Positions 15,201-60,070 are shown, counted from the stretch's first letter. The stretch is DNA of 64,000 nt from Candidatus Woesearchaeota archaeon (GCA_016926395.1 JAFGOT010000014.1:24556-88555); one strand, 5' to 3'. The notes: generated by a model not told the origin, from the letters alone. Numbers and translations are program-made.

Positions 15201-15205
15201 TGTTT

Positions 15206-30879: not shown

Positions 30880-32788
30880 ATGGAAGAAGGAGCACAATTA
30901 TCATTTCCAGTAATATTGCTAATCACAATAAATAGTATACTGGGGACTGGAATATTTTTTCTTACCTGCAGTAGGTGCTAGAGAGGCAGGTTTGTTTGCT
31001 ATTATTTCTTGGCTTATAATGGGTTTGATTGCTATAATGTATAGTATGGTTTTTGGTGAATTGGTTAGTCGTTATCCAAAAGAAGGTGGTGTTTTTGAAT
31101 ATGCAAAGGAGGCGTTTGGATTCTTCCCTAGTTTTTTGCTTGGTTGGATGACTTTAATTGCAGCTAATGTAACTATTGCAATGCTTATGGTTGGGGCAAT
31201 AAAATATGTCGGTCCAAACTTGAGTAATTTATTCATAGCAGGAATAAGTATTCTATTTATTTTGGCATTTAATTTTGTTGCTTTTAAGGGGTTGAAAACG
31301 GGCAAAGTAATGTTATTAACTTTTGCAGGCATAACATTAGTTGCTGTTTTGGGAATATTAATTCCTGGACTAATAAACTTTAATCCTGCTAATTTCACTA
31401 ATTGGTTATCTCATGAAAGTTTTGCTGGTTTTGGATTTAATGTTTCAGGGTTAGTAGGTGGCTCAGTGATTATTTTTGGAACTATTTTTTTTATTGCAGA
31501 AACTTTTTTCGGTTGGGAAACTGTTACTTTTTTAGCAGAGCAAGTTAAAAACCCAAAAAAAATAATGCCTAATGCATTAGTCAAAGGAACTGTTTTGATT
31601 TCGATTTTTTCATTATTATTCGTGATTGCAAGTAAAAGTATTTTACATTGGAGTGTTTTAGCAAATTCTTCAACTCCTTTAGCTGATCTTGCAAGTGCTG
31701 TTTATGGACCTGCAATGATTCCTGTGTACAGCATCTTAGTTTATCTAGCGATAATTGGTAGTGTGGCGGGGTGGATAGTTGCGGCTCCAAATCTACTTGT
31801 AGCTTTGGCAAAAGATAAATTATTTATTCCTTCTTTTGCAAAAAAGCACCCTAAAACAGGAACTCCTTACAAAGCAATATTATTTCAAACAATTGTAACT
31901 TCTGTATTGGTAATAATTGGAGCTGGAAGTTATGAAACTCTTCTTCACTTATTAGTTCCTTTAGTTTTGGTTTTATATGGCAGTGTTGTCTTAAGTTTAT
32001 TATATATTAGAAAGAAAAACAAAGAGTTTGATGGATATAAAGCTCCTGGTGGTTTAGTATTGCCCATTTTTCTTTTACTATTCACTTTAGCTTTGGTTTT
32101 GATGTGGGGTTTTCAAGAGCATAATGCTATAGAAACTGTTGAAGTATTAATCACTTTTCTAGTTTTAGGAATTCCTGTATTTTTGTTGATGAATTTCCAT
32201 CACAATCCTCATGCAAGTGTTACTTTTCAGAATAAAACAGTTGGACTTTCGAAATTTCTGGAAAGGTTATTTTTGCCTAAAAAAATACGAGTTAGACTTC
32301 TTGAAAAAATGGAGAATCACCACAAGGTGTTGTTTTTAGGGGCCGGATCTGGAATTTTAATAAAAGAATCTTCTATTCCCAAAGAGAACATAATTGTGAT
32401 TGAACATTCTGAAAGTTTAGCTAATCATTTAAAAAACCGTTTTCCGACAATAGCGGTTATTCATGATGAACACGCAGTATCAAGATTACACCCTGACATA
32501 AAAAAAGCTGATGTTGTTGTTAGTGTAGGGATGCTTGCTCATATACAAAGTTTATCGATGCATCTAAAACAGTTACATAATATCCTTCCAGAGAATGCTT
32601 TGATACGTTTTTTTGACTATTCAAAATTTTATAAAGTAATATCTAATAATATTCCCGAAATTGATGAGCTAAAGAAAGTTTTTAGAGAAAACGGATTTTC
32701 AGTTAGGGTTGAAGAAATAAAAGGTATTTTTTGGAATTATTTGATAATAGAAGGCGTTAAAACTGATTTAGATGTTGTTTATATGTGA
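30880..32788 (+). pseudogene. APC permease-SAM methyltransferase fusion (paralog of 24092-26092), frameshifted in T6 run
   Basis: N-terminus MEEGAQLSFPVILLITINSILGTGIFF is in frame 1 from the ATG at 30880; the rest, LPAVGAREAGLFAIISW..., is in frame 2 (ORF-track ORF from TTG 30992). The switch is at tttttt 30955-30960; T5 would restore GIFFLPAVG. C-terminal domain has intact motif I VLFLGAGSG. Confidence 0.7.
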
Positions 32789-32837: not shown

Positions 32838-33257
32838 ATGAGGAGGGTGAGATCTAGTTCTGGTCAGGTGGCAATGGAGTACTTGATAGTATTCTTGATG
32901 GCTTTTTTTATGACCATGCCTCTTATAATAATCTTTTACACGCAATCAAATAACTTTGAAGACGATATTTCTGTGGCTCAAGCAAATAAATTAACTTCAG
33001 AACTAATCGATGCTGCAGAAGAAGTTTATTTTCTTGGGAGTCCATCTCAAAAAACGGTTGATGTGACGTTTCCAAATGGATTGCAAGAAATAACCATTGA
33101 ATCAAATTCGCTCATATTAAACATGACATCAAAAGGAGATGACTATTTGGTTTATGGAGATACTTTGGTTAATTTAACGGGTATTTTACGAACAAGCCCG
33201 GGAAGAAGACCGGTAAAAGTTGTTGCGACAGGAACTGGAGTTCAAATAACTGATTAA
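32838..33257 (+). CDS. pilin-like protein with class III signal peptide
   Basis: SSGQVAMEYLIVFLMAFFMT. Confidence 0.6.
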   Translation: MRRVRSSSGQVAMEYLIVFLMAFFMTMPLIIIFYTQSNNFEDDISVAQANKLTSELIDAAEEVYFLGSPSQKTVDVTFPNGLQEITIESNSLILNMTSKGDDYLVYGDTLVNLTGILRTSPGRRPVKVVATGTGVQITD

Positions 33258-33287
33258 TGAAATGCTCTTCTTCCAAGTTTTAAGAAA

Positions 33288-33698
33288 ATGATACATACTA
33301 AAAAAGCACAAGTTTCGATAGAATTTATCATTCTTTTAACGATGAGTGTCTTTATGATAATAACTTTTATGATTGCAATAAAACATGTATCTGATCAAAA
33401 ATTATTAAAAAAAACATTAAACGAACTAGATGACTTGGGCAAGAGTGTTCAACAAGAATTGATGCTTGCATCACAATTAAATGATGGTTATGTTCGAGAA
33501 ATATACATTCCAGCAAGGCTTTATGGAGTGGATTATTCTCTAAATACAAGCGCAGTCTCTGGAACGGTGATGTATCTAAATATTTACTACGAAGGTGTTG
33601 AATTATTTTATTTAATTCCCTACATACAAGGAGATGTAAAAACAGGACTTAACACAATATCAAAAAATAACAATACGGTAATGGTATCTCAAACATGA
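33288..33698 (+). CDS. pilin-like protein with class III signal peptide (Ala at -1)
   Basis: TKKAQVSIEFIILLTMSVFMII. Confidence 0.5.
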   Translation: MIHTKKAQVSIEFIILLTMSVFMIITFMIAIKHVSDQKLLKKTLNELDDLGKSVQQELMLASQLNDGYVREIYIPARLYGVDYSLNTSAVSGTVMYLNIYYEGVELFYLIPYIQGDVKTGLNTISKNNNTVMVSQT

Positions 33699-34204
33699 TG
33701 AAACGAAAAGGACAAGTGTTTACACTGGATTTTTTTATTGGCTTATTTGCATTCATTGTATTATTAGTTATAGGTTTTACACAATTATTTTCTTTCTTAC
33801 CAAATTCTGATTTTAAACAATTATATGGTGATGCAACTTATTTATCAAATGTTTTAGTCGATTCAGGTTATCCTACTTATTGGAATTCAACAAACGTTCT
33901 TCTTCCAGGACTCGCTGACAATCATCGATTAAATGTTACTAAATTACACGAGTTCGAAAATATTTCTTATACTAACAGTAAATTATTATTTCATATCACT
34001 TCTGAATATGTTTTCTTTTTCAAGAATCAAACGGATTATTTGAATTTATCAAATTGTACTTATGGCTATCCAATATCTGTTAACATAACTAGTTGTGAGC
34101 CTAATTTATTATCTTTTAATTATAAAAACTTAGTAAAAACTCAAAGACTATTGGCTTATGATGGGAACATTGTGACAATGGTGATTTACACGTGGAAAAG
34201 ATGA
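33695..34204 (+). CDS. pilin-like protein with class III signal peptide
   Basis: MMKRKGQVFTLDFFIGLFAFIVLLVIGF; 4-nt overlap with the previous gene. Confidence 0.6.
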   Translation: MMKRKGQVFTLDFFIGLFAFIVLLVIGFTQLFSFLPNSDFKQLYGDATYLSNVLVDSGYPTYWNSTNVLLPGLADNHRLNVTKLHEFENISYTNSKLLFHITSEYVFFFKNQTDYLNLSNCTYGYPISVNITSCEPNLLSFNYKNLVKTQRLLAYDGNIVTMVIYTWKR

Positions 34205-36873
34205 ATAATAAAGGAATATACTACTCAATGGATGCTTTATTAGCAGGACTTCTATTTGTAGGTGTAATTTTATTATTATTTCAAAACAGTTTTTATGAAC
34301 CAAATACTGATCAACAAAATTTCTTGTCCCAGGATTTATTAGCATCACTTGGATCGATAACTTTAGGAGAATCAAATTATCCGATGATTACTGCAGAATT
34401 ATCTTCAGGGCAATATGTTGATGCTAACAACACCGTACTTGAGCTTATTGGAATTTATTGGGCATTAAATCAAACGCAAAATGCAACAAAGATTATAACT
34501 CGCTTTGTAAATGGAACCGTTCCAGATCAACTTTACTTACAACTAAATCTCGATGGTGATGACTTGTATCCATACCAAAACTCAACAACTCCAACAAACA
34601 TAATTGGTGGGCGGAGAATGATAACTGGAATCGCGCAAGGAAAACCTTTAACTGGTTTTAGTTCTTCAGCATATTTAAAAAAAGTACGAAACAAAAAAAC
34701 ATCTTCTTATGCTTATTTTGGAGGATATTATGCTCAAGGAAATATTTCAACAACACTAAATCTTCCAAGTGACTTTTCATCATCAAGAATAATTTCTGCT
34801 CGAATAAATATTGAAACTCCTGGAACATTTGATTTGCTGATAAATGGCAATGTTTGCTTAAATGACGTAACTGGTTTAACAACAACTGTTACGTCATGGG
34901 ATTTAATAAATTGTAATTCTAGCTTTAAACCAAACAAAAATAATATTTCATTTATTTATTCAAGTGAACTTAATGTATCTGCAATATCTGGTGGTTTAAT
35001 AAAAGTAACATACACAACAGACACCTTAAAAGAAATAATTCCAACAGGGTATAAAAGATATTACTTGCCAGAAATTCAAGGATTCATAAACGTTTATGAC
35101 GCTTTCTCTGCGCAAGGATTAATTGATTCTTGGAATTTGAATATGACTTTTTACAACGAATACGATACTTTTGTGACTATAGGAAATGAAACCATTTTTA
35201 TCGCACCTGGAAGTAATACAACACAAAACATATTTTTCTCAAGAAATAATGCATCCTTGCCACCAACAGAAATTCCACTAAGGGTTGGAACAACAAATCT
35301 TTCAAACATAACAATTGTTCAATCAGGTGATCCATCTGACTCGTTTTTAGTAACTGATGTATCTGGAAGTATGGATGATTGTGGATTATATTATACAGAA
35401 AATGTTACCTATTGTGGTTATGATTATAAATTTTGGTTCTGGTGGACTTACACTGAGTGTCCTTATACAGGATCATGTGTTTCAAATGAATGTGGAGGAT
35501 CTACAACGACTCAAAACCATGTTATTTATGATAAAACAGTTTCAACTTGTAACAAAACTTTGATGGAGTTAGCAAAAGAAGCTGATGATTTATTTGTTGA
35601 TGTGGTTCTTGGAAACTCAACGTTAAATGAAATTGGATTGATAGATTTTTCAACTAATGCTAATACTCCAACTGATCTTACAAACATTCCAGGTGTATTG
35701 CACAGCGAAATATCAACTTATTCTGCAGGAGGAAATACTTGTACTTGTTGTGGTATAAATAGAGCAAAAGATTTGCTTTTATCTTCAGATGATGATAAGT
35801 TTATGGTTGTACTAAGTGATGGAGAGCCAACCGCTTACTGTAATGGATTTAGTGATTATACTGGTTCAACTGGAGATAACACTCAGGCAAGAAATGATGC
35901 TATTGCGTCTGGACAAGAAGCTTGTGCAAATAACATAACTGTTTATACAATTGGATTTGGAGAGGGAATGTCTGCTCAAGGACATGATATAATGAGACAA
36001 ATAGCTTGTAATGATTCATTATATTATAATGCTTCTAATGCTGGAGACTTAGCAGAAATTTATGAAAATATTTCTCAAGATATTTTAGTTGCAGCAAATT
36101 ATTCATCACAAACAATAAACATAGTTGGAAATTTTACAATCGCAAATTTATCAAAAGATTCATACATTGATTTGTACTACACACCTATTGTCCAAGAAGA
36201 TAATCAAGGTAAATTATCGATGGTGTTTGAATCAGCTCCATTTGGTGGTTGCACATCGTCTGTAAGCATACCAGGAGGGGTGTTAATTGAGGATGCATAT
36301 GTAACCTCTTTCTCAAGTAATCATTGGACGAAAAAATTAGATGTAAATGGTATTAATGTATTTAATTTATCGGAGTATGGATCTGATTATACTTTACTTG
36401 GGGATCCTTTCATCATACAAGTTCCATCTGCAGTTTTAATTCCTGGAGCAACGAATAACTTTACACTTGAAGTTGGCGATAACCCTGTTAACATTTCAAG
36501 TTGTTCACCAAATAATACTTTTATCTACACTGCTTTAATTAATGCTTCAACACCGCGAGGAGAAACTTATGAAGAACATGAAGGTTGTACTTGGATTGTA
36601 GAATCTGAAACAGGAAAAAATTCCACTATAAAAATTCCTAAAGATTATTCAGGTCCAAATAATTGTTCGTATACTTCCGCAAGCATTAGTTATAATGTAT
36701 TAGATGCATACGACTCTGCGACTCACTTCTTATTATCGCAATTAGATCCTGACAATAATGGAAAAATAATTGTTGACTTAGCAGAATCAGATTTAGAAAT
36801 AACAATAACTTTGGTTAGTGGAATTCCATATCTTTGGGGTCCCACTCTTGTAGGAACTCAAGTAGGTAGTTAA
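34192..36873 (+). CDS. large pilin-like protein (893 aa) with von Willebrand factor A domain, candidate pilus adhesin
   Basis: N-terminal NNKGIYYSMDALLAGLLFVGVILLLF class III-like signal; MIDAS motif LVTDVSGSMDD (DxSxS) near aa 390; many N-x-S/T sites; Cys-rich segment. Confidence 0.6.
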   Translation: MEKMNNKGIYYSMDALLAGLLFVGVILLLFQNSFYEPNTDQQNFLSQDLLASLGSITLGESNYPMITAELSSGQYVDANNTVLELIGIYWALNQTQNATKIITRFVNGTVPDQLYLQLNLDGDDLYPYQNSTTPTNIIGGRRMITGIAQGKPLTGFSSSAYLKKVRNKKTSSYAYFGGYYAQGNISTTLNLPSDFSSSRIISARINIETPGTFDLLINGNVCLNDVTGLTTTVTSWDLINCNSSFKPNKNNISFIYSSELNVSAISGGLIKVTYTTDTLKEIIPTGYKRYYLPEIQGFINVYDAFSAQGLIDSWNLNMTFYNEYDTFVTIGNETIFIAPGSNTTQNIFFSRNNASLPPTEIPLRVGTTNLSNITIVQSGDPSDSFLVTDVSGSMDDCGLYYTENVTYCGYDYKFWFWWTYTECPYTGSCVSNECGGSTTTQNHVIYDKTVSTCNKTLMELAKEADDLFVDVVLGNSTLNEIGLIDFSTNANTPTDLTNIPGVLHSEISTYSAGGNTCTCCGINRAKDLLLSSDDDKFMVVLSDGEPTAYCNGFSDYTGSTGDNTQARNDAIASGQEACANNITVYTIGFGEGMSAQGHDIMRQIACNDSLYYNASNAGDLAEIYENISQDILVAANYSSQTINIVGNFTIANLSKDSYIDLYYTPIVQEDNQGKLSMVFESAPFGGCTSSVSIPGGVLIEDAYVTSFSSNHWTKKLDVNGINVFNLSEYGSDYTLLGDPFIIQVPSAVLIPGATNNFTLEVGDNPVNISSCSPNNTFIYTALINASTPRGETYEEHEGCTWIVESETGKNSTIKIPKDYSGPNNCSYTSASISYNVLDAYDSATHFLLSQLDPDNNGKIIVDLAESDLEITITLVSGIPYLWGPTLVGTQVGS

Positions 36874-36874
36874 G

Positions 36875-37858
36875 ATGAAATTAAAGATTAAAAAAATGAA
36901 CAACAAGGGATTCACATATTTAATCGCTGTATCTTTTCTAATTGCCACACTTATAGTTGTATATTTAAGCGCTACTGATTATGGATTTCAAGATCAACAA
37001 GAATTGTACAAGAACCGAATTGTTGCAATGGATAATTTTGTGAGTGACTTTAATCAAGACGTGCATCGAGCAAGTTATATTGCTTCATTTAGAACTTTAC
37101 TTTCTTTAGAAGATTATGTTGCTGTCAATGGAGAATTCTTTAACAATACTGAAGATCAATTCAAAGAAACATTTTATTATGGTCAAATAAACAGATCTGA
37201 AGCTGAACTTATGAATGGTTCTAGTTTTGAAGATTATTTATCCAGGGTTAATGTTGTGGCTGAAAAAATTGGAATACACTCAAATGTTACTGTTACAGAT
37301 ATAACTCTTTCACAATCTGATTTTTGGTCCATAGATGTGGTGATAACTGCTCTTGTTAATATTACTGATAACCATAACATTGCATCTTGGAGTTTTGAAA
37401 AAAATTATTCAACAAACGTTCCAATATATGATTTAAGAGATCCTCTTTATAGTACTTTTACATTCAATCGAGTTCCAAACACAATAAGAAAACTAGATGT
37501 TCCTTACTTGGTTAATGGAACAGACACTTTTAACTTAGAAACGCACATTAATGGTTCTTATTATCTAGAATCAACTGATGCGCCAAGTTTCCTACAAAGA
37601 TTTGAAAATAATTTGAGTCCAAGTCCTTATGGTATAGAAAGTATTGTTAATGTTGGTTTAATCTCAGCCCAAGAAGTTGGTGTTTGCGAAGATTGTATCA
37701 AAGTTGATTATATGTATTTTAATGGTTTAACCGATACCAAACTTTGTGATGTTCAAAACATTAATCCAAATACTTACTTTGTAATTCCTCTAAATCAAAA
37801 CGAAACTTATGAAGTTTCTAATTTGACTTTTTCTACTGGTGGAAGTTGTAATACTTAA
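36875..37858 (+). CDS. pilin-like protein with class III signal peptide
   Basis: NNKGFTYLIAVSFLIATLIVVYL; starts 2 nt after the previous stop. Confidence 0.55.
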   Translation: MKLKIKKMNNKGFTYLIAVSFLIATLIVVYLSATDYGFQDQQELYKNRIVAMDNFVSDFNQDVHRASYIASFRTLLSLEDYVAVNGEFFNNTEDQFKETFYYGQINRSEAELMNGSSFEDYLSRVNVVAEKIGIHSNVTVTDITLSQSDFWSIDVVITALVNITDNHNIASWSFEKNYSTNVPIYDLRDPLYSTFTFNRVPNTIRKLDVPYLVNGTDTFNLETHINGSYYLESTDAPSFLQRFENNLSPSPYGIESIVNVGLISAQEVGVCEDCIKVDYMYFNGLTDTKLCDVQNINPNTYFVIPLNQNETYEVSNLTFSTGGSCNT

Positions 37859-37978
37859 TTATTTTTGATAAAACCTGTTAATTTGATTTAAAGTTAGAAA
37901 TAAAGAAAAATTCATTTGAACTATTGTATAGTAGTTACGCAAGATATATAAGAGTAATTTATCCCTTTTTTTATTAGT

Positions 37979-39124
37979 ATGAAGAATATAACGACAGGTA
38001 TTGACAGATTGCTCCAGTTAGTAGAAGAGCGTAAAAAGATATCTGCTGAAACTGCCGCAAAAGAATTGAATCTTGGTAAAGATGTGATTGAAGAATGGGC
38101 AGAAATATTAGAACAAGAAAAAATAGTAAATTTATCATTCAAATTCTCAAAAATGCATATTGAAGCGAAAAAAATAACTGAGAGAACAGTATTTGATTCT
38201 GCAAAACAAATATCTTCACAAAAAGAAGCATTTCATAGAAAGATTGAGTCGACAATAAAATCAATCGACAACGAATCGGCAGGTTTTGAAGAAATAAGAT
38301 CTGAGTTTGAAAAAATCCAAGGTCACATTAAAGACGAACTAGAAACCGTAAGGAAAGAAATGAAAGAGCTAGAACATTTCGATGCCCTGAAAAAAAATAT
38401 TGAGAAAGACATTCAGACACAAAAAAAAGATTACGAATTATTTACTAAAGCTTATGATGAAGAGATGAAGACGTTTGAAAAAAATTATTCATCTTCAATT
38501 GAAAAACTAAAAAAAGAACAAGACACACTAAAAAAACTTCAGGATTCAATAGTAGGTCTTAGAAGCGATAAACAAGAAATTGAAAAAATAATAAAAGAAT
38601 CTTTACAACGATTAAAAGACGTTGAAAAGAAAGCAGATGAACAAATAGTTGATATGAAACAAACAGAAAAAACTATTGATAAATTGAAAAAAGAAATTGA
38701 TGGTCTGTCAACAAATATTAAAGTTTCACGTGCTAAGAACCTAAAAACACTTGCTAAAATTGTTGGTGAAGGAAGAGAGAGAATAACTAAAGATCATGAA
38801 AACCTTCTAAAGAATGCACAATCCAAAGTTACTGAATTAAAAGACTATGCTGATGCTGGAGAAAAAATATACAAAAAATTCTCTGATAAATTTATGAAAA
38901 AAATCGAAACAGGAGATTTAATCTCTGAAATCGAAAAAGAAAAAAACGACTTAAAAGATGAATTGATTGAACTTGATAAAAAAGTTCAAACTTTTAATGC
39001 ACTTAAGGGGAGTGTTGAAGTAAAAGATCAATTCAAAGAAATTGAAGCAAAAATATTTTCTTATGAAGAAAAAAGACACAAACTAAGCGATAAAATAAAC
39101 AAATTGCTTGGGATGATGAAGTAA
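37979..39124 (+). CDS. wHTH + long coiled-coil protein, homolog of 55478-55936 (N-domain)
   Basis: GIDRLLQLVEERKKISAETAAKELNLGKDVIEEWAEILEQEKIV aligns with GVDELIRYLRTKGKVSLKEASTHLNIPEQTLQLWLDFLVEERII in the second pilus locus. Confidence 0.5.
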   Translation: MKNITTGIDRLLQLVEERKKISAETAAKELNLGKDVIEEWAEILEQEKIVNLSFKFSKMHIEAKKITERTVFDSAKQISSQKEAFHRKIESTIKSIDNESAGFEEIRSEFEKIQGHIKDELETVRKEMKELEHFDALKKNIEKDIQTQKKDYELFTKAYDEEMKTFEKNYSSSIEKLKKEQDTLKKLQDSIVGLRSDKQEIEKIIKESLQRLKDVEKKADEQIVDMKQTEKTIDKLKKEIDGLSTNIKVSRAKNLKTLAKIVGEGRERITKDHENLLKNAQSKVTELKDYADAGEKIYKKFSDKFMKKIETGDLISEIEKEKNDLKDELIELDKKVQTFNALKGSVEVKDQFKEIEAKIFSYEEKRHKLSDKINKLLGMMK

Positions 39125-39167
39125 TAAGAAAAGACTTAATTTATTTTTTAAAAGGGGTGGATGGTAA

Positions 39168-40847
39168 TTGCCAACTAATAAAAAAACTAAAGCTGTTAAA
39201 AAATCTACAAAGAAAACCGCTAAAAAAAGTGTTAGCAAAAATTCTAAATCAAAATCATTAGCTTCAAAAAGTAAAGCTAAACAAAAGACATCTAAGTTAG
39301 AAACAGAACACGTTGGAACTCAAACGCATGAAATTGATGACTATAAATACTTATCTGGCGATATACCTATTCGAATAACAATAAAAAAACACCCTCACGA
39401 ATTTGTTCCGATATATGACTTAGAAATAGCATCTATTAGTGATACAACAAAAATAATGCTTGAAAAAATAAGACAAGAATTAATCAAAAAAGTAAGTCTT
39501 GGAATTGCAGATCTTAGTGATGTTAAAAAATCAGATGTGGTTGAAGAACGATTTGAAGAATTGATTCAAATCCTAGTTGAAAAATACTTACCTGATTCCG
39601 ATCTTGAAACAACACATTTCTTAACTTCTTATCTTCGTATTAAAAGTCTAGGGCTTGGAAATTTAGAATTAATAATGGATGATCACCAACTAGAAGAAAT
39701 TGTTATTAATCAAGCAAACGAACCTGTTTGGATATTTCATAAAAAATATGGTTGGCTAAAATCAACAACTTATCTAAAAGATGAAAATCAAATCAGACAT
39801 TTTGCAAGTATCATTGGAAGACGAGTAGGGCGTCAAATAACTGTTTTAACACCTCTTCTTGATGCTCACCTAAATGGTGGGGATAGGGTTAATGCAACAC
39901 TTAGTCCTGTTAGTACTGCAGGTAACACCATAACAATTAGGAAGTTTTCACGAGACCCTTGGACAATAACTAAGTTTCTAAAAGCAGGAACCATATCTGA
40001 AGAAGCGGCTGCTCTAGTGTGGTCTGCAATACAATACGAGATGAGTGCATTAATCGTAGGTGGAACCGCATCTGGGAAAACAAGTGCGCTAAACGTATTT
40101 GCAAGTTTCTTCCCACCAAACCAGAGAATAATTAGCATTGAAGATACAAGAGAAATTAGGCTTCCAAAATTTCTGCATTGGGTTCCTTTAAACACTGTGA
40201 TGTCAAACGCTGAAGGAAAAGGAGAAATAAGTATGGGTAACTTACTTGTTAACAGTTTAAGGATGCGTCCAGACCGAATACTTGTAGGTGAAGTACGTAG
40301 AAAGCAGGAAACAGAAACATTATTTGAAGCAATTCACACAGGTCACTCAGTATACGCAACATTTCACGCAAACAACGCACAAGAAGCAGTTGATCGTTTA
40401 ACAAACGCACCACTTGATGTTCCAAAGATTATGCTTCCAGCGATTTCAATTCTAGTCGTTCAATATAGGAACCGAAGAAATGGAAAACGAAGAACTTTCC
40501 AAATAGCAGAGATAACTTCAAAAGGAGATCCGAATGTGTTGATGCAATACGATGCTAAGAATGATGTATTAAACCCTGCTTCAAGAATGATTGAAACTTT
40601 ACTTAAAGGAAAATCGGCGTTCTATGATACTATAAAATCCTTTACTGGAATGGATAACAAAGAATTGATCCAAGACCATAATGAAAAAGTAAAAATTCTA
40701 AAATACTTAGTTGAGCACGATATAACTTCAGTTGATGGTGTTGGTCGAATAATGGCTGAATATTATACTGATAAAGAAAATTTAATGAGATATGTGAATA
40801 CTAATAAAGAATTCCCTATGAACGTTGCGAAAGATGAGGCCGTGTAA
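39168..40847 (+). CDS. type IV pilus/archaellum assembly ATPase (FlaI/TadA/PilB-like) with Lys-rich N-terminal tail
   Basis: Walker A GGTASGKTSALN, Asp box IISIEDTREI, His box LVGEVRRKQE...HTGHSVYATFHANN. Confidence 0.9.
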   Translation: MPTNKKTKAVKKSTKKTAKKSVSKNSKSKSLASKSKAKQKTSKLETEHVGTQTHEIDDYKYLSGDIPIRITIKKHPHEFVPIYDLEIASISDTTKIMLEKIRQELIKKVSLGIADLSDVKKSDVVEERFEELIQILVEKYLPDSDLETTHFLTSYLRIKSLGLGNLELIMDDHQLEEIVINQANEPVWIFHKKYGWLKSTTYLKDENQIRHFASIIGRRVGRQITVLTPLLDAHLNGGDRVNATLSPVSTAGNTITIRKFSRDPWTITKFLKAGTISEEAAALVWSAIQYEMSALIVGGTASGKTSALNVFASFFPPNQRIISIEDTREIRLPKFLHWVPLNTVMSNAEGKGEISMGNLLVNSLRMRPDRILVGEVRRKQETETLFEAIHTGHSVYATFHANNAQEAVDRLTNAPLDVPKIMLPAISILVVQYRNRRNGKRRTFQIAEITSKGDPNVLMQYDAKNDVLNPASRMIETLLKGKSAFYDTIKSFTGMDNKELIQDHNEKVKILKYLVEHDITSVDGVGRIMAEYYTDKENLMRYVNTNKEFPMNVAKDEAV

Positions 40848-41642
40848 ATGAGCTATAAGCAACTAGCAAAGAAATTTCCCGGACTAAAAGAAAAATTAAA
40901 ATCTGCTGGAATAGTTGATACTCCAGAAGAATACGTAAAAAAAACATTCATGACTGCTGCAATGTTTGCAGGAGGACTAACTGCTGTTGTATTAATAATA
41001 TTTCAAGCATTATGGACTTTAATAGTTCCATTTATTGTAGGTGTTCCAATATTTTTATACTTGATGAAATATGTAGATGTTAGAATAGTACAACTACAAA
41101 GACAGATAGATGAAGAAATTGTTTTTGCAGGAAGATTCTTAATTATAGAATTACATTCAGGAGTTCCAATTCACGAAGCTTTTGAAACACTTGCAGCTAA
41201 TTATGAAACAGTTGGTGTTTATTTTGGAGAAATAGTTGATAAGATGTATTTAGGAACGGCACTTGAAGAAGCAATAAATGATGTTCTCTTAAATTCGCCA
41301 TCTCCAACACTTAGAAGAATATTGTGGCAATTATTAAATTCTATGAAAACAGGAAGTGATGTTGCACCTGCACTCTCTTCTGTAATTGAACAAATTGTAA
41401 AAGAACAAGATATAGCAGTAAAAGAGTATGGTAAAAAACTCAATCCTTTGGCAATGTTTTATATGATGCTTGCTGTTATAGCGCCAAGTTTAGGAATTGT
41501 AATGCTTGTGGTTCTTGCAACATTTGTAGGTTTTAGTTTGAGCTTAACAGTTCTTTTAGCAATTGCTGGATTAATTGGATTTGTACAATTAATGTTTATG
41601 ACAATAATGAAATCATCACGACCACCCATTAGTATGGGTTAA
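40848..41642 (+). CDS. TadC/FlaJ-like pilus platform membrane protein
   Basis: Follows the ATPase by 0 nt; TM-soluble-TM layout of the T2SS-F family; homologous to 58222-59031. Confidence 0.7.
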   Translation: MSYKQLAKKFPGLKEKLKSAGIVDTPEEYVKKTFMTAAMFAGGLTAVVLIIFQALWTLIVPFIVGVPIFLYLMKYVDVRIVQLQRQIDEEIVFAGRFLIIELHSGVPIHEAFETLAANYETVGVYFGEIVDKMYLGTALEEAINDVLLNSPSPTLRRILWQLLNSMKTGSDVAPALSSVIEQIVKEQDIAVKEYGKKLNPLAMFYMMLAVIAPSLGIVMLVVLATFVGFSLSLTVLLAIAGLIGFVQLMFMTIMKSSRPPISMG

Positions 41643-41651
41643 AAATGTAAA

Positions 41652-42899
41652 ATGGGATTATTAAAAAACGCAGTGGAAAAATACAAAACGGCAAAAATTA
41701 AGTTAGATTTAGCGAGAGCTAAGAAAAAAGAATTGGAAGAAGAAAGAAGTCATCTTATCTACAACGCAAAAAAATCAATGGAGAAAAATTCTTCTAATGA
41801 AGCAAACTCGGAGAAAAAAACCGAAAAGAAAAAAACAACCACTCCGATTAAGAGCAGAGCAATAATTAGTAAATTTGATAAGAAAAAAACAGTTCAAAAA
41901 AGAAGATTCTCCAGATTTCTAGAAGATTTTCTTGAAAAAGCAGGGATAGAAAAAAAGCCAAAAGAAATAAGTAAATCAGTAATTTTTGTTTCAATAATCT
42001 TAACATTCATTTCCATAATTGCATTTATTATTTATGGATTAACTAATTTTTTGTCATCTAATGCTTATTTTGTCTTTATACCTTTAATCATAATTCTTGG
42101 TTCGGTATTTTTTTATATTGCAAGTTTGATAACTTTATTTATTTACTTTGACTTTAAAATTTATCAACGAACAGGACAGATAGAAGATGTTCTGCCTGAT
42201 TTTCTACAGCTTGCATCTGCGAACATAAGTGCGGGAATGCCAATTGATAGGGCATTGTGGTTTGCTGTAAGGCCTCGTTTTGGAGTGTTGGCAAAAGAGA
42301 TGGAAGAGATTGCAAAAGCCACATTTACCGGAAGCGAACTTGATGAAGCATTGATTAAGTTCACACAAAAATATAAATCACGATTACTAAAAGAATCAGT
42401 CAATCTAATAATCGCCGGATTAAAATCAGGAGGAGAATTAGGAGATTTACTGAATAAAATTAGTGAGAACATTCAACAAACAAAAATAATGAGAAAAGAA
42501 ATAAGTGCAAGCGTTATGACTTATGTTATTTTTATAGGGGTGGCTTCAGTTCTAGCAGCACCTTTGTTATTTGCTTTAAGCTCTCAATTATTGCATGTGG
42601 TAACTGGAATATCGGGTGACTTTGATACATCTGCAATGGAAGACATGCCTTCTGGCGTGATGCCAATATCATTTAATTTTGGATCGGGAGAAAGCGTAAA
42701 ACAATCAGATTTTAAGATATTTTCATTTACTTTAATAGTAATAACTTCTTTCTTTGCGGCTGCCATAATAGGTGTAATCCAAAAAGGTAATGCAAAATCC
42801 GCATTAACTAAGTTTCCAATGTTTCTGGTAATTTCTTTAATAATATTCTATGTTTCTAACAAATTTTTAGGAATACTGCTTGGCGGCCTCATGGGGTAG
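41652..42899 (+). CDS. second TadC/FlaJ-like membrane protein
   Basis: T2SS-F-like segment LPDFLQLASANISAGMPIDRALWFAVRPRFG; homologous to 59021-60070. Confidence 0.65.
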   Translation: MGLLKNAVEKYKTAKIKLDLARAKKKELEEERSHLIYNAKKSMEKNSSNEANSEKKTEKKKTTTPIKSRAIISKFDKKKTVQKRRFSRFLEDFLEKAGIEKKPKEISKSVIFVSIILTFISIIAFIIYGLTNFLSSNAYFVFIPLIIILGSVFFYIASLITLFIYFDFKIYQRTGQIEDVLPDFLQLASANISAGMPIDRALWFAVRPRFGVLAKEMEEIAKATFTGSELDEALIKFTQKYKSRLLKESVNLIIAGLKSGGELGDLLNKISENIQQTKIMRKEISASVMTYVIFIGVASVLAAPLLFALSSQLLHVVTGISGDFDTSAMEDMPSGVMPISFNFGSGESVKQSDFKIFSFTLIVITSFFAAAIIGVIQKGNAKSALTKFPMFLVISLIIFYVSNKFLGILLGGLMG

Positions 42900-53779: not shown

Positions 53780-54316
53780 ATGGTGAGAAATCTTAGAAAC
53801 TCTAGAAAAGGAGCCTATTTTTTTGTACTTGATGCTATAATTGGCATTCTAATATTTGCAACAACTGTTTTTATAATTGCTGGCTTTAATACGTTTAAAC
53901 CCGCGACAGGAGCTCTTTCTCAACAACTAGATTTATTATCGGCTGACCTTTATGAAACTGAACTTCGAAATGTTGATATCACTGCTGATTTTTTCTTAGA
54001 TTTAAAGCAAAACCATCCTTTATATGATCCTTATTTGACGGTTGATGAATTTGTTTATTTTTTAGTTTTATCAAGTGAAACTGATAAAGCATCTTTATTG
54101 GTTGGAAATTTAACTAATTGGCTTGTTCCTTCTTATGGTATTAACTATTCAATAACTTATGGATCGAACATAGTAACTGTATTTTATAGGGACTCGACGA
54201 TAACAACATATGAAGATAGTAGATCAAGTTTAGCTAGAGAAAAAGTTACTGTTTTAGGTTCAAATATGACTAATTTTATTGAACCCGGATTTTCTTCGGT
54301 GGTGATTTGGAGATGA
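53780..54316 (+). CDS. pilin-like protein with class III signal peptide
   Basis: NSRKGAYFFVLDAIIGILIFATTVFIIAGF. Confidence 0.6.
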   Translation: MVRNLRNSRKGAYFFVLDAIIGILIFATTVFIIAGFNTFKPATGALSQQLDLLSADLYETELRNVDITADFFLDLKQNHPLYDPYLTVDEFVYFLVLSSETDKASLLVGNLTNWLVPSYGINYSITYGSNIVTVFYRDSTITTYEDSRSSLAREKVTVLGSNMTNFIEPGFSSVVIWR

Positions 54317-55419
54317 ATAAATCACACTTAAATAAAGCTCAATTGTTTTCTATGATGGCCATATTTATGTCTGCTCTTTTTATCATAATGTTTTCAGGTT
54401 TAACTCATGTAGCATTAAATAAAGATGTGGAAATAATTGAAACAGAAATTGCTAGATTTGGGACTTTGGCTGAAAGCTTAGATTACTTTGTTCACAAATC
54501 ACTTGATACATCTGGATTTATAATTTTACACAACTCAGCCCAAAAATTATATGAAGACTGTGGAGGTTCACCAACTCCTGCTTGTTATTTTAGCAACTTT
54601 ACACAAACATTTTATGATTGTTTAGATGTGGGTGAGTCATCTGATGGTTGGGATTGTATGGGTGATATTGACCCTCCTAATCATAACGCATCATATAAAG
54701 CACAACTTGAATTCTTAGCTGATGAACTTGAAAATCGCTATGCTGATTTGCAAATAAATATTTCTGATACAAAGGTGGGGGTAAGACAATCCGGGCCTTA
54801 TACGTTTGAACTAACTGCCGAAGTTGAACTTGCAATGATTAGACCTGGTTATTCTTGGGATCGTTTTTTTAATGTAACTCGAGAAGTTAATGTTATGGGA
54901 ATGAATGACCCTGCACTATCTGCTTTTAGAATAAATAAATCTATTTTAGTTCATCCAACGGAAGGGGAACTTATGACTGTTGCTTCACTTAGTGGGAATT
55001 ATTATAGGATTGCACAAGTAGTTAATGATTCATATTATATTCGAGATAATCGTTCAGGTATTTCAATAACTGAAATGTTTGAAGGAGTGCGATTGGTAAC
55101 TCCTAATAATGATACTCATCCTTTTGGAATTACGTGTGTGTTACCATTAGATTTGGTAGAAGATGGATCAGGAGTTCTTCAAAACAGAGATAATCGTTCT
55201 CTTCTAGAGCATCAATTCTTGGGCGATTTTTTATTTACTGGAGGGAATACTCTTTTTAGGTTTGATGATGAAAATTTTTATGGTGTTGATGATGATATTA
55301 TTGTTGATTCTGGTTTCTTTGCAAGGTTAAGTATTCTAAATTTTAAGTATGTTGGAAATTGTTGCAGGGATAGTCAATATTATGGTGTTGATGGTGCTTG
55401 TGATAATAGTTGCGGTTAG
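54307..55419 (+). CDS. pilin-like protein with class III signal peptide (Ala at -1), Cys-rich C-terminus
   Basis: LNKAQLFSMMAIFMSALFIIMFSGL; 10-nt overlap with the previous gene. Confidence 0.5.
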   Translation: MEMNKSHLNKAQLFSMMAIFMSALFIIMFSGLTHVALNKDVEIIETEIARFGTLAESLDYFVHKSLDTSGFIILHNSAQKLYEDCGGSPTPACYFSNFTQTFYDCLDVGESSDGWDCMGDIDPPNHNASYKAQLEFLADELENRYADLQINISDTKVGVRQSGPYTFELTAEVELAMIRPGYSWDRFFNVTREVNVMGMNDPALSAFRINKSILVHPTEGELMTVASLSGNYYRIAQVVNDSYYIRDNRSGISITEMFEGVRLVTPNNDTHPFGITCVLPLDLVEDGSGVLQNRDNRSLLEHQFLGDFLFTGGNTLFRFDDENFYGVDDDIIVDSGFFARLSILNFKYVGNCCRDSQYYGVDGACDNSCG

Positions 55420-55477
55420 TTCTTCACTGCAAAATGGTTAATAAACTTTATAACTCTTTTTTAAAATAAATATAGCC

Positions 55478-55936
55478 ATGGACGAGGTGAGAGTCGAGAC
55501 AGGAGTAGATGAACTAATACGGTATCTACGAACTAAGGGGAAGGTTAGTCTAAAAGAGGCTTCTACTCATCTAAACATTCCAGAACAAACACTTCAATTA
55601 TGGCTTGATTTCTTGGTTGAAGAAAGAATAATTGGGATGGAATACAAATTCACAAAACCTTACATATTTCTAAATGAGGATGATAAATCCCAAATACTCG
55701 ATTCAAAAGAAGAACAAAAAAGAGACGTTACTATTGATACTTTTAAAGAAGAATTCTTTTCAAATGCGAAGAGAAAACAAATGCCCGAATCAAAAATACC
55801 TATGCTTTGGCAAGCTCATCTATCAACAGATATAGAAAGACAAAAAGAATTTTTTATGGCAGAGGCGGATAAGCGATCAATAAAAAATCCGGAAAAAGTG
55901 TTTGCTGTTTACAAACGAAGATTACTTGAGATGTAG
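55478..55936 (+). CDS. wHTH protein, homolog of N-domain of 37979-39124
   Basis: See the alignment under 37979-39124. Confidence 0.5.
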   Translation: MDEVRVETGVDELIRYLRTKGKVSLKEASTHLNIPEQTLQLWLDFLVEERIIGMEYKFTKPYIFLNEDDKSQILDSKEEQKRDVTIDTFKEEFFSNAKRKQMPESKIPMLWQAHLSTDIERQKEFFMAEADKRSIKNPEKVFAVYKRRLLEM

Positions 55937-55941
55937 AAAAT

Positions 55942-56697
55942 ATGGATATAGTTGCATTTTTAAAAAAAGACATTGTCACTTTCTTGGAAAACGCGTCTAA
56001 ATATGGTACTGCGGAGAACAAAGCTGTTGAGGAGGAGCTATCGTCTCTACTCTCACCAAGTTCGTCTTCAACAGATGTCTCCTCTTCTAAAAAATCTGAA
56101 CAACCAATTCAACAAACAGTGAATGTAACAATCGCAAAAGATATGGTAGAAAACGCTATCAAAGAAATTAAAGAAGAGAAAACAACACTCCCTCCTATTA
56201 AAGTTCCTGAAGAAAAACCAATAGAAAAGAAAGTAAGTCCAGAAAAGTTAGATGAAATTCAAAAGCAGATAATTGAATTAGACAATTATGTAAAAAATTC
56301 AAATATTCAAGAGACATTAAAATTATACAACCGATTAAAATTATTAGTACTAACTGTGACTTTAGATAAAGAACTTCAATCAAAATTATATACTTCTCTA
56401 AAAGATGCTGCAATCTTTCTAAACAAGAATAAAACACATTTAGAAGATAGTTTACAAGATAAATCAAAAAAACAAAAAAAGAAAGTGGAATCTTTAGAGA
56501 GCCACGAAAAAGAACACGAAACAGCAACCGTTTCAGATACTGGAAATACTTTTGAAATGCCAAGTTACATTAGGGCATTAAAAGCAATAAAAGAACACGA
56601 TAAGGTTACTGCGCTTGAATTATTAGTAAGTCTTTCAAAACAACATCCAAAGAATAGAGCAATAAAAATGAGGCTAAGAGAGGCATTATATCTCTGA
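55942..56697 (+). CDS. Lys/Glu-rich hypothetical protein
   Basis: Low-complexity charged ORF between the wHTH gene and the ATPase. Confidence 0.3.
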   Translation: MDIVAFLKKDIVTFLENASKYGTAENKAVEEELSSLLSPSSSSTDVSSSKKSEQPIQQTVNVTIAKDMVENAIKEIKEEKTTLPPIKVPEEKPIEKKVSPEKLDEIQKQIIELDNYVKNSNIQETLKLYNRLKLLVLTVTLDKELQSKLYTSLKDAAIFLNKNKTHLEDSLQDKSKKQKKKVESLESHEKEHETATVSDTGNTFEMPSYIRALKAIKEHDKVTALELLVSLSKQHPKNRAIKMRLREALYL

Positions 56698-56703
56698 TTT
56701 AAA

Positions 56704-58212
56704 ATGGACGGACAACAAGAACAACTAGACAGATACTCATTAACCGTAAACGATGTTTTGGTAGAAATAAATATAATCCGGTATAGAAATCATCCTGTTG
56801 CAAAATACTTAATCTCTATTACGAATATAAGCGATACCACAAAATTGATTCTTGAAAAAATAAGGCAAGACTTTATTCAACGAATTGATTTTTCTGCAAT
56901 TGAGAATTTCGAATCAAATGATCTTGAAAAAATTCAAAACAGATTCCGACGAGAAATAAGTGCACTATTAAAAAAATATTTTCCAGATTTAGATGAAAAA
57001 TCTGAATCAATGCTTTCAAATTATATTATTGAAGAAAACTTAGGATTTGGAAAAGTAGATATTTTGTTAGCAGATGAAAGAATAGAAGAAATAGTTATCA
57101 ATTCACACACTGAACCTGTTAGAGTCTATCATAAACAATACGGTTGGCTTGAAACAAATGTTAAAATAGTGACTGAAGCTAGAATAAGACATTACTCTTC
57201 TATGATTGGACGAAACGTTGGAAAAGAAATAACTGCTCTTAGTCCATTAATGGATGCACACTTAAAATCAGGAGACAGGGTTAATGCAACACTAACGCCA
57301 ATCAGTACTGCAGGTAACACAATAACGATTAGGAAATTCGCAAAAGATCCTTGGACTATTCCAAAATTCATTCAAGCTGGAACCGTATCTCTTGATGGAG
57401 CTGCATTTATGTGGCTTTGTATACAACAAGAGCTTTCTATTCTTGTAGCTGGGGGAACTGGTTCTGGGAAAACATCTATGCTTAATGTATTATCAAATTT
57501 TTTCCCACCAAGTCAACGTATAATTACAATTGAAGATACACGAGAACTTGTATTACCAAAAATAATGCATTGGGTTCCACTTGCAACTAGGCTTCCAAAC
57601 CCTGAAGGAAAGGGAGGCGTTACGATGCTTGATCTTCTAGTAAACAGTTTAAGGATGCGTCCAGACCGAATACTAGTAGGGGAAGTACGTAGAAAAGAAG
57701 AAGCACAGATCATGCTTGAAGCAATGCATACAGGTCACTCAGTATATGCTACAATTCACGCTAACAATGCAGATGAAGTAGTTGTACGTCTTTCAAACCC
57801 ACCTATTAGCATTCCAAAACCAATGCTTTCATCAATTGGATTAATATGTGTTCAAAACAGAAACAGAAGAACTGGAAAACGAAGAACATTACAATTAGCA
57901 GAAGTTCTTCCATCGGGCGATCCAAACGTAATACTGCAATTAAATGTACGAGATGATATATTACAAAAAATGAATGAAAGCCAAGTAATCTATGATAAAC
58001 TAGAATTATATTCAGGAATGTCAAGAGAAGATATCCAAAAAGATATTGAAAGCAAAAAGAAAGTTTTGCAATGGTTAATAGACAACCAATTTTTTGACAT
58101 AGAAACAGTAGGTAAAGTAATGTCTCAGTACTACATGGGAATACTTGATATGGATAATTGGAAAGATCAACAAGAAGAATATGCTCAAGACTTAAAAGAG
58201 CTAAAATCATAG
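56704..58212 (+). CDS. type IV pilus assembly ATPase (FlaI/TadA-like), paralog of 39168-40847
   Basis: Walker A GGTGSGKTSMLN; LVGEVRRKEE...HTGHSVYATIHANN. Confidence 0.9.
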   Translation: MDGQQEQLDRYSLTVNDVLVEINIIRYRNHPVAKYLISITNISDTTKLILEKIRQDFIQRIDFSAIENFESNDLEKIQNRFRREISALLKKYFPDLDEKSESMLSNYIIEENLGFGKVDILLADERIEEIVINSHTEPVRVYHKQYGWLETNVKIVTEARIRHYSSMIGRNVGKEITALSPLMDAHLKSGDRVNATLTPISTAGNTITIRKFAKDPWTIPKFIQAGTVSLDGAAFMWLCIQQELSILVAGGTGSGKTSMLNVLSNFFPPSQRIITIEDTRELVLPKIMHWVPLATRLPNPEGKGGVTMLDLLVNSLRMRPDRILVGEVRRKEEAQIMLEAMHTGHSVYATIHANNADEVVVRLSNPPISIPKPMLSSIGLICVQNRNRRTGKRRTLQLAEVLPSGDPNVILQLNVRDDILQKMNESQVIYDKLELYSGMSREDIQKDIESKKKVLQWLIDNQFFDIETVGKVMSQYYMGILDMDNWKDQQEEYAQDLKELKS

Positions 58213-58221
58213 GTAAATAAT

Positions 58222-59031
58222 ATGTCGTTTGTAAAGTATATACTTTTAAAACATCCTCTTCTAAAAAAAGAAATGCGAATGGCCGGAGTTCCTATAGATC
58301 CGGAAGGATTCGTAAAAAAATCTCTTAAAAGTGCTATTTTTATGGGCTTTATAGTTTTTGCAGGTTTATTTTTTTTAATGGGGAAAGAAAATCCCTCTCT
58401 TTTCAAACCTTTAGTTGGTGGTTTGTTAGTTGGTTACTTTTCATTTGCTTTTTCATTTAGAAAACTACAAGTAAAAATACAAAAAAAAGGAAAACAAATA
58501 GATAGAGATGTACTTTTTGCAGGACGATTCTTACTTGTAAAACTAAATAGTGGTAAGCCTTTAATTAATGCATTAGAAGAAGCATCAAACGGATTTGGTT
58601 ATGCTACAAAATATTTTCAAAATATTATGAGGGATTTGCATTTAGGTACTTCTTTAGAAACAGCTCTTGAAAGAGCTACGGAATACTGTCCATCTGAAAG
58701 TTTAAAAAAAATATTGTTTCAAATAACTAACGCATTAAAAATTGGTGTTGATGTAACTGATTTCTTGCAAGCAGTGCTTGATGAAATATCGGAAGAACAA
58801 TTAAGTCAAATAATTAGGTATGGAAAGAAACTATCTAGTTTAACGATGTTTTATATGCTTGGAGCAATAATTGTGCCAAGTTTGGGAATGACTTTGTTTG
58901 TTGTTGTTGCAGGGATGATAAATATTAATTTAGATTGGGTTGCTTTTGCAATAATAATATTTGGACTTGGAATAATTCAATTCGTGTTTATTACATTATT
59001 TAGGTCAGCAAGACCAAACCTTGATTTGTGA
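58222..59031 (+). CDS. TadC/FlaJ-like membrane protein
   Basis: DVLFAGRFLLVKLNSGKPLINALE aligns with EIVFAGRFLIIELHSGVPIHEAFE of 40848-41642. Confidence 0.7.
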   Translation: MSFVKYILLKHPLLKKEMRMAGVPIDPEGFVKKSLKSAIFMGFIVFAGLFFLMGKENPSLFKPLVGGLLVGYFSFAFSFRKLQVKIQKKGKQIDRDVLFAGRFLLVKLNSGKPLINALEEASNGFGYATKYFQNIMRDLHLGTSLETALERATEYCPSESLKKILFQITNALKIGVDVTDFLQAVLDEISEEQLSQIIRYGKKLSSLTMFYMLGAIIVPSLGMTLFVVVAGMININLDWVAFAIIIFGLGIIQFVFITLFRSARPNLDL

Positions 59032-60070
59032 GAAGAAGAAAATGGGAGCTATGAGAGAATTTGGAAAGGCATTTGTGCCTGAAAAAATGTTTGGATTTAA
59101 AATCCGAGCTAATCTTAAATCCTATCTTCTAACTGCAGGTTGCCCTGATGTGCCTTATGATTTTTTTGGAATATTATTCTTAGCAACAGCTGCAGTAACT
59201 TATTTTATATTTATGGGTCTAGTTTATCCAGTAGTTCATGGAATGAATTTTTTGGTTGGTTTAGTTTTACTGTTTGTTGCTTGGGCTGGGATACAGCTAC
59301 TTTTGGTGTTTATAGTATGTTTTATGATATTCTTTTTTCTAAATATTAAAGTCTATAAAAGAACGAAAGAAATTGAAAGTAAGCTAGCAGATTTCTTAGT
59401 TTTGGTTTCTACTAATTTGAAAGGAGGCCTTTCCTTGGAACAAGGTCTTTGGGCTGCAATTAGACCTGAGTTTGGTTTATTGGCTGAGGAGATGACTTTA
59501 GTTTCAAAAAGAGTTATGACGGGAAATGATTTAACAGAAGCATTAAATGAATTTGTGCAAAAATATGATTCTCCTTTATTACAGAGAAACTTCTCATTAA
59601 TCATAGGGGAAGTAGAAACTGGAGGAAAGATTGTTGTTGTTATTGATAAGGTAATTGAATCATTAAAGAAAACAAAAGCACTAAAAGATGAGATGAGTGC
59701 TTCAGCTGTTAGTTATATGATATTTATTGGTGTAATTGTAATTGCTGTAGCTCCAGCATTATTTGCTCTTGCATATAGATTATTATTTATCATAACAAAC
59801 TTTACATCCTCAATTGGTTCCTCAATGTCCGGAACAGGAATTGCAAACGCAATAAACTTTAATACTGAAGTCGATACGGGGCTTTTTAAGAATTTCTCAA
59901 TATGGGCCCTTGCAACTATTTCTATATTTAGTTCGATGATTATTTCAATAATAGAGAAAGGAGATATTAAAGGGGGATTAAAATATATTCCTGCATTTAC
60001 TATCGTTTCAATAGTTCTTTACTTGATATTTATGGCAGGATTAGAAGCAGTGTTTGGAGCTGTATTTTAG
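59021..60070 (+). CDS. second TadC/FlaJ-like membrane protein
   Basis: LADFLVLVSTNLKGGLSLEQGLWAAIRPEFGLLAEEM aligns with LPDFLQLASANISAGMPIDRALWFAVRPRFGVLAKEM of 41652-42899. Confidence 0.65.
   Translation: MICEKKKMGAMREFGKAFVPEKMFGFKIRANLKSYLLTAGCPDVPYDFFGILFLATAAVTYFIFMGLVYPVVHGMNFLVGLVLLFVAWAGIQLLLVFIVCFMIFFFLNIKVYKRTKEIESKLADFLVLVSTNLKGGLSLEQGLWAAIRPEFGLLAEEMTLVSKRVMTGNDLTEALNEFVQKYDSPLLQRNFSLIIGEVETGGKIVVVIDKVIESLKKTKALKDEMSASAVSYMIFIGVIVIAVAPALFALAYRLLFIITNFTSSIGSSMSGTGIANAINFNTEVDTGLFKNFSIWALATISIFSSMIISIIEKGDIKGGLKYIPAFTIVSIVLYLIFMAGLEAVFGAVF

Follow-up and report, generated by a model that had tools for sequence, protein, structure and literature searches.

The passages of Hamm et al. 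(2024, Nat Commun; PMC11291902) on pilus loci report two conserved type IV pilus loci across cluster 2 DPANN archaea, with Woesearchaeota named among them; CpaF, TadC and coiled-coil proteins are encoded in each locus and filament genes in one only, and proteomics of Ca. Nanohaloarchaeum antarcticus recovered several of the locus products. Two type IV pilus systems were also reported in Nanoarchaeota by Jarett et al. (2018) (PMC6142677). Makarova et al. (2016) described the Clade 2 ATPases (arCOG01817, including AfGspE, AF0659, and Haloferax PilB3 and PilB4), which are marked by an ancestral duplication and frequent paired tadC genes and which include a few Nanoarchaea (PMC4858521), and in the Epd pilus of Methanococcus maripaludis (EpdJ, EpdK, EpdL) two platform genes have been attributed to gene fission (PMC6668835). 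In this work, a stretch of 64,000 nucleotides from Candidatus Woesearchaeota archaeon (GCA_016926395.1, JAFGOT010000014.1:24556-88555; hereafter the window) was analysed, and the gene cluster at positions 53780-60070 (locus 2), which an initial annotation had described as a second, paralogous Tad-like pilus locus with the same gene order as a cluster upstream of it (locus 1), was compared with locus 1 and with these systems. The results make it highly probable that locus 2 and locus 1 are anciently duplicated clusters of a DPANN lineage, each for the assembly of a type IV pilus-like structure. Going by the passages cited, the occurrence of two paired pilus loci in Woesearchaeota is already known and is ordinary for cluster 2 DPANN.

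Locus 2 consists of seven co-directional open reading frames (ORFs) on the plus strand, with small overlaps or gaps of no more than 58 bp between them. The first two encode prepilin-like proteins, one of 178 residues (53780-54316), which has the class III-type N-terminus ...SRKG/AYFFVLDAIIGILIF, and one of 370 residues (54307-55419), which has the N-terminus ...NKA/QLFSMMAIFMSALFII and eight invariant cysteines. NCBI places the start of the latter gene at the ATG at 54313, giving a product of 368 residues, and this ATG is the probable true start. They are followed by genes for a small cytoplasmic protein of 152 residues with an N-terminal winged-helix-turn-helix (wHTH)-like domain (55478-55936), a variable charged, low-complexity protein of 251 residues (55942-56697), which separates the wHTH gene from the ATPase gene, and a PilB/CpaF-type secretion ATPase of 502 residues (56704-58212; Pfam T2SSE, E 2.3e-41). 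The last two genes encode platform proteins with one T2SSF domain each, corresponding to the N-half (269 residues, 58222-59031; Pfam 1.3e-10) and the C-half (349 residues, 59021-60070; Pfam 4.2e-11) of a split PilC/FlaJ. The core of a type IV filament machine is thus present, comprising a motif-complete PilB/GspE/CpaF-type ATPase of the hexameric kind, a T2SSF platform and class III-type substrates, the processing of which is predicted.

Comparison of the two loci showed that the locus 2 ATPase is 48% identical over 502 residues (E = 0) to the PilB/CpaF-type ATPase of locus 1 (559 residues, 39168-40847, plus strand), and the long stretches that had been claimed to be identical in the two proteins (RKFxxDPWTIxKF, RPDRILVGEVRRK and HTGHSVYAT) were indeed found in both. 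The platform of locus 1 is split as well (40848-42899, plus strand), into an N-half of 264 residues (40848-41642) and a C-half of 415 residues (41652-42899). The N-halves of the two loci are 34% identical (E 1e-52) and the C-halves 35% (E 1e-54), in agreement with the pairwise homology of the membrane proteins proposed earlier. By Pfam, T2SSE is present in the two ATPases, and each of the four platform proteins contains T2SSF once. Between the 152-residue wHTH protein and its locus 1 counterpart, a protein of 381 residues in which a wHTH domain is joined to a long charged, probably coiled-coil part (37979-39124, plus strand), the similarity is confined to the N-terminal region of about 58 residues (29% identity, E 9e-11).

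BLASTP comparison of the pilin-like proteins of locus 1 with those of locus 2 gave no significant match. The families were then compared profile against profile, with negative controls at or below 0.5% and a rerun without bridging sequences. The results showed that the family of the 178-residue protein matches the N-terminal part, about 150 residues, of the family of a giant prepilin-like protein of locus 1, which has 893 residues and a vWA domain (34192-36873, plus strand; Pfam VWA 1.1e-08; hhalign 99.1%, E 1.5e-18), and that the family of the 370-residue protein matches that of a prepilin-like locus 1 protein of 327 residues (36875-37858, plus strand; hhalign 98.8%, E 4.7e-17). Both matches fall in the same gene order in the two loci. 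Because the pilin-like pair is remotely homologous to two locus 1 genes, locus 2 is a block duplicate of locus 1, paralogous to it gene for gene over the part that starts at 34192 (34192-42899). Compared with locus 1, the vWA/adhesin part is absent from locus 2, and the wHTH and charged proteins are separate genes. The initial annotation was therefore right about a second paralogous locus with the same gene order, all seven ORFs of which lie at the positions given above. Its description of two complete machineries with different pilin sets was overstated: the second cluster is real and intact, but the pilin-like genes of locus 2 number only two, both are remote homologues of locus 1 genes, no small pilin with a G/A-Q-x3-E[FY] motif occurs in the locus, and the searches of the window identified no gene for a prepilin peptidase.

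The motifs of the locus 2 ATPase are GGTGSGKTS (Walker A), IEDTRE, RPDRILVGEVR and HTGHSVYATIHA. The Walker A motif, Asp box, Walker B motif and His box are intact in both ATPases of the window and invariant in 34 orthologues, so the view that both enzymes keep their catalytic motifs holds. Orthologues of the locus 2 ATPase reach 62-88% identity, and for each of the two ATPases at least 120 cluster representatives share 62-90% identity with it; set against the 48% identity between the paralogues, these values bear out the claim that the duplication is not a recent one. The credibly named relatives are all labelled Woesearchaeota, Nanoarchaeota or DPANN. The best match of the locus 2 ATPase in the PDB is AfGspE (2OAP, 227 bits), followed by CpaF (184) and FlaI (177), and its top match in NCBIfam is FlaI with 253.7 bits, far under the cut-off of 550; the TadA-family model TIGR03819 gave 191.8 bits (cut-off 373). 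The locus 1 ATPase weakly matches Pfam PilB3_C.

A neighbour-joining tree of the ATPases was built from 398 columns with 500 bootstraps. The sample comprised 28 DPANN orthologues, 13 further DPANN loci, AfGspE, FlaI of S. acidocaldarius, CpaF of C. crescentus, three haloarchaeal PilB proteins and 14 metagenomic ATPases, 12 of which group with CpaF, the other two being those of loci L019 and L028. Each of the two ATPase families of the window is monophyletic, and the two are sisters, in every case with 100% bootstrap support. All DPANN ATPases, with those of Nanohaloarchaea as a separate subgroup inside, form a clade supported at 100% in this neighbour-joining tree with few references, which points to a DPANN-specific ATPase lineage. 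AfGspE, the haloarchaeal PilB proteins and FlaI group together at 100% to the exclusion of the DPANN clade, and the split between the archaeal-type ATPases, the DPANN clade included, and the CpaF-like ones received 95%. Mean identity between the DPANN clade and every outside group is 30-39%. This placement and these identities suggest that the duplication, though old, took place within the DPANN ATPase lineage; on the sampling of the tree, it would not be the euryarchaeal duplication that gave PilB3 and PilB4. AfGspE, a Clade 2 member according to Fig. S4 of Makarova et al. (PMC4858521), is the best solved-structure match of the locus 2 ATPase, but in our tree, in which PilB is represented by three haloarchaeal proteins, it groups with the haloarchaeal PilB proteins and FlaI and not with the DPANN clade, and identity is 31-34%. 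The haloarchaeal loci examined differ further in having one fused platform gene of about 680 residues and no wHTH partner. The two nanohaloarchaeal ATPases, L005 and L006, group with each other and not within the sister pair that the window families make up; separate duplications might therefore underlie the paired loci in Woesearchaeota and in Nanohaloarchaeota.

The initial annotation had called the last two genes of the locus TadC-like. In NCBIfam alignments, 58222-59031 corresponds to the N-terminal half of the UpsF and ArlJ (FlaJ) models and 59021-60070 to the C-terminal half of ArlJ (FlaJ). Hidden Markov models (HMMs) built from the two DPANN platform families (platN and platC) were scored on haloarchaeal loci and on bacterial CpaF loci from a metagenome scan, which served as Tad references. 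The results showed that the fused PilC of about 680 residues encoded in three haloarchaeal plasmid loci is colinear with the DPANN pair, its N-half matching platN and its C-half platC. These half-wise colinear matches imply that the two genes are halves of a single split platform. Both are T2SSF proteins, each paralogous to its counterpart in locus 1, but taken together they make up one divided PilC, with the N-half first. Among the bacterial CpaF loci scored, most have a first gene (TadB) with a clearly better match to platC and a second (TadC) that matches platN weakly or ambiguously. The order is therefore ATPase-N-C in locus 2 and ATPase-C-N in bacterial Tad, and a Tad order of C-like TadB followed by N-like TadC agrees with Denise et al. 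(2019) (PMC6668835).

With bacterial Tad (type IVc), locus 2 shares the same broad archaeal/Tad branch of ATPases and two single-T2SSF genes placed after the ATPase gene, and the locus 1 pilins carry a Flp-like G/x4-E[FY] signature. It differs in that the ATPases are 30-32% identical and belong to separate clades, the platform halves are in reverse order, and TadZ/CpaE, a secretin and a Flp-type pilin are missing from the locus. The label 'Tad-like' is thus loosely supported; against it stand ATPase scores below the TadA and FlaI cut-offs, a DPANN-only clade, the absence of a TadZ/MinD gene among those identified in the 64 kb and the N-C platform order. The Epd pilus also has two single-T2SSF platform genes and a glutamine at pilin position +1, as do locus 1 and the 370-residue protein. 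The Epd platform genes precede the ATPase gene (PMC6668835), an order also seen in loci L028 and L036, whereas here the ATPase gene comes first, and no EppA was found here; L028 and L036 do not group with the DPANN clade. Three metagenomic loci of archaeal type (L028, L036 and L070) have two very short platform genes (about 190 and 180-245 residues) followed by an ATPase gene of 411-418 residues, an Epd-like gene order, and together with L019 they are the closest non-DPANN relatives by identity (37-39%).

An HMM of the wHTH domain matches the gene upstream of the ATPase gene in every DPANN locus examined, directly upstream in most, and gave no match in the haloarchaeal, Tad or Epd-like loci examined. 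Database similarities of the wHTH protein are consistent with the assignment, being to HTH and winged-helix regulators only (LrpA, 1I1G, E 0.0025; Pfam HTH families, all below cut-off). In loci L015 and L016, which gave the weakest matches of the set to the wHTH profile, the ORF upstream of the ATPase gene opens with a hydrophobic, probably membrane-spanning segment; if the ORF start is right, the wHTH-type partner would in these two loci sit at the membrane and not on DNA. The 251-residue protein has no family match in Pfam or NCBIfam. Comparison with the protein of 396 residues encoded at the same position in locus L001 showed that about 43 N-terminal and 46 C-terminal residues are conserved and that the middle is hypervariable and charged; the positional counterpart in locus L010 has 489 residues. 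The idea that the 251-residue protein is the detached coiled-coil tail of the 381-residue locus 1 protein was rejected, as the two share no sequence similarity. It is probably the counterpart of the 'coiled-coil proteins' mentioned for DPANN pilus loci in the passages of Hamm et al.

Both loci are conserved in relatives. A 1.07 Mb ENA contig of a relative carries the two about 22 kb apart with their internal order unchanged; locus 1 is inverted, and the flanks of locus 2 are the same as in the window, with PolB upstream and a PUA protein, aIF5B and a rhomboid protein downstream. Two further contigs (64,974 and 214,253 bp) are among the matches of both ATPases. The module wHTH-ATPase-platN-platC was found in the DPANN loci, those of Nanohaloarchaea among them, whose sequence reaches far enough, and both of the locus 2-type clusters seen, L001 and L010, contain the prepilin-like pair.

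With the paired loci described in the passages of Hamm et al., the window thus shares the lineage, two loci per genome, a CpaF-like ATPase, TadC-like genes and a charged, coiled-coil-type protein. Extra filament genes occur in one of the two loci there as well as here, where small pilins are encoded at locus 1 and none at locus 2. The 'Locus 1' and 'Locus 2' of those passages could not be matched one-to-one with ours, and the L005/L006 pair lies outside the sister pair of the window. The passages and the supplement text make no mention of the wHTH domain, the N/C platform split or the remote homology of the pilin-like pairs.

The 178- and 370-residue proteins each begin with a short charged segment, followed by a G/A cleavage-type site and a hydrophobic helix, features that are conserved in their orthologues. 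The AF2 model of the 178-residue protein (pLDDT 92.6) shows an N-terminal helix (residues 8-36), a helical bundle and a four-stranded sheet; it has no significant fold match in the PDB, and the family comprises 39 representative clusters, nearly all of 160-185 residues. The 370-residue protein is fast-evolving, with five homologues among 5.8e9 proteins.

On the reading of locus 2 as a duplicated pilus-like assembly cluster, a prepilin peptidase encoded elsewhere would trim the pilin N-termini, and the ATPase would dock on a platN/platC heterodimer and drive the extraction of pilin from the membrane into a filament. The 178- and 370-residue proteins would probably be minor pilins with a role in priming or capping the filament, and the wHTH and variable charged proteins may assist or regulate the motor from the cytoplasm. 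Bulk pilin would probably be supplied in trans, for example by the family of a small pilin gene at 30230-30769 (plus strand; 179 residues, MKG/QAAMEFLMTYGW...), since copies of this family flank both locus types in relatives, three of them downstream of the locus 2-type cluster in L010. The machine would likely serve attachment to host cells or surfaces, locus 1 being the version that bears a vWA adhesin and locus 2 the adhesin-less one. The suggestion that the two loci build two distinct filaments, used for attachment versus DNA uptake or motility, is plausible but only partly supported.

The G/A-Q-x3-E[FY] motif is carried by this 179-residue pilin, which is a candidate major pilin, possibly common to both machines, and by the products of three small prepilin-like genes of locus 1 (139, 136 and 169 residues; 32838-34204, plus strand) that have no counterpart in locus 2. 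The families of the 139- and 136-residue proteins are related (hhalign 95.6%), and the latter protein matches Pfam Class_IIIsignal below the cut-off (E 0.0017). An amino-acid-permease gene (30992-32788, plus strand) lies between the small pilin gene at 30230-30769 and locus 1 and is not there in the relative L002; it has a paralogue at 24092-26092 (minus strand), and each of the two proteins has a C-terminal S-adenosylmethionine-dependent methyltransferase domain.

Several points weigh against the reading just given. A motif scan found no small G/A-Q-x3-E[FY] pilin in locus 2, and a locus that lacks its own small pilin of the major type may not produce a separate filament. No solved pilin matches the globular domains of the 178- and 370-residue proteins, and the AF2 model of the latter protein, a long N-terminal helix with a three-stranded sheet, has a low pLDDT (52.6). 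The ATPase tree is a neighbour-joining tree with few named references. No prepilin peptidase (A24) was identified in the 64-kb window by Pfam searches of the likely ORFs, several ORFs being covered by motif scan only. Moreover, the minor-pilin role, the shared major pilin, the role of the wHTH protein, processing, polymerization and attachment are all steps that we infer.

The missing small pilin also speaks for the chief alternative, in which locus 2 is a second motor and platform set for the locus 1 pilus, used for retraction or for assembly under other conditions. Such an arrangement would resemble the specialization of PilB and PilT, or the euryarchaeal duplicated ATPase/tadC operons that share one pilin set, and the duplicated ATPase/tadC modules of Makarova et al. 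use pilins in trans (PMC4858521); in addition, the only gene of the 179-residue family in the window lies beside locus 1. However, locus 2 conserves a prepilin-like pair of its own (in L001 and L010), together with its platform and wHTH partner, and in L010 the locus 2-type cluster is directly followed by the three small pilin genes. Because its own pilin-like pair is conserved, a mere second motor for the locus 1 pilus is disfavoured, and we regard it as unlikely.

Less likely still is a function in protein secretion or DNA uptake, with locus 2 encoding a short pseudopilus machine and not an adhesive pilus. Recruitment of type IV filament machines to such tasks, secretion as well as DNA uptake, has occurred repeatedly (PMC6668835), and the locus 2 subunits are minor-pilin-like only, with no adhesin domain. 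On the other hand, the proteins with a Walker A motif in the window are three, namely the two pilus ATPases and aIF5B, no ComEC/ComEA-type gene was found in it, and locus 2 has no obvious secreted cargo gene, so this explanation is given very little weight. Genes of the MinD/TadZ, FlaH/KaiC and archaellin types were not identified in the 64 kb, no protein with a deviant Walker A motif of the TadZ/CpaE type was found anywhere in the window, and neither a secretin nor FlaF/G domains gave a Pfam hit in locus 2. An ORF with seven transmembrane segments (23028-23705) was considered as a prepilin peptidase and rejected, having no Pfam hit, no GxGD motif and no pair of membrane Asp residues.

The weakest alternative, an archaellum operon or a bacterial Tad system acquired by horizontal transfer, is suggested by automatic homologue names (JGI 'FlaI', NCBI 'CpaF/TadA') and by FlaI being the top NCBIfam match, but it is effectively refuted and was rejected on the scores, which are far under the FlaI and TadA-family cut-offs, on the tree, in which the ATPases fall in a DPANN-only clade apart from FlaI and the CpaF-like proteins, on a platform order unlike that of Tad, and on the partners absent from locus 2 (archaellin, FlaH, FlaF/G, TadZ and secretin).

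Within the favoured reading of locus 2 as a duplicated assembly cluster, a more specific combination of three proposals can be put forward tentatively, although it is doubtful that all of them hold together. The wHTH protein would be a fourth core cytoplasmic part, an adaptor in place of the missing FlaH/TadZ-type partner, and not a transcription factor; both machines would polymerize the same small pilin with different tips, one with the vWA adhesin and the other adhesin-less; and the N-then-C platform split would reflect a fission independent of that of TadB/TadC.

The window as a whole is AT-rich (about 30-34% GC) and archaeal, and it also encodes a family-B DNA polymerase, aIF5B, proteasome beta and FttA; tRNA-Met and tRNA-Ser were the only hits of Rfam and tRNA scans. 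Other candidates for surface functions are present in it. A protein of 258 residues with a class III-like N-terminus (MVCGKKGQITLFVIIGIIILL) is encoded at 4166-4942 (plus strand), followed at 4944-8972 (plus strand) by a secreted protein of 1342 residues with an isochorismatase-like domain at residues 896-1016, and this pair may represent another surface structure processed by the same peptidase. A secreted or membrane protein of 736 residues with a transglutaminase-core domain (17133-19343, minus strand) is a candidate cell-surface factor. A small island of restriction or defence type lies at 11635-16538. It includes a ParB_N and DpnII/MboI endonuclease fusion (11635-12984), a B12-binding radical SAM protein (12993-14123), a PLD/NgoFVII-like nuclease (15792-16538, minus strand) and a split DpnI-type methyl-directed restriction endonuclease, the parts of which, both on the plus strand, correspond to residues 4-70 of Pfam DpnI (14431-14664) and to residues 85-182 plus DpnI_C (14682-15200); the split is due either to a frameshift, which would make DpnI a pseudogene, or to faulty assembly.

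For DPANN archaea, whose genomes are tiny and which mostly live attached to other cells, two pilus machines are a notable investment. The two pilus loci are leading candidates for host recognition and attachment, a point already made in the literature. What is added for this contig is an old block duplication within the DPANN lineage, an N-C split PilC, a constant wHTH companion and a reduced locus 2; these details do not change the kind of system that the loci represent, but they could guide experiments.

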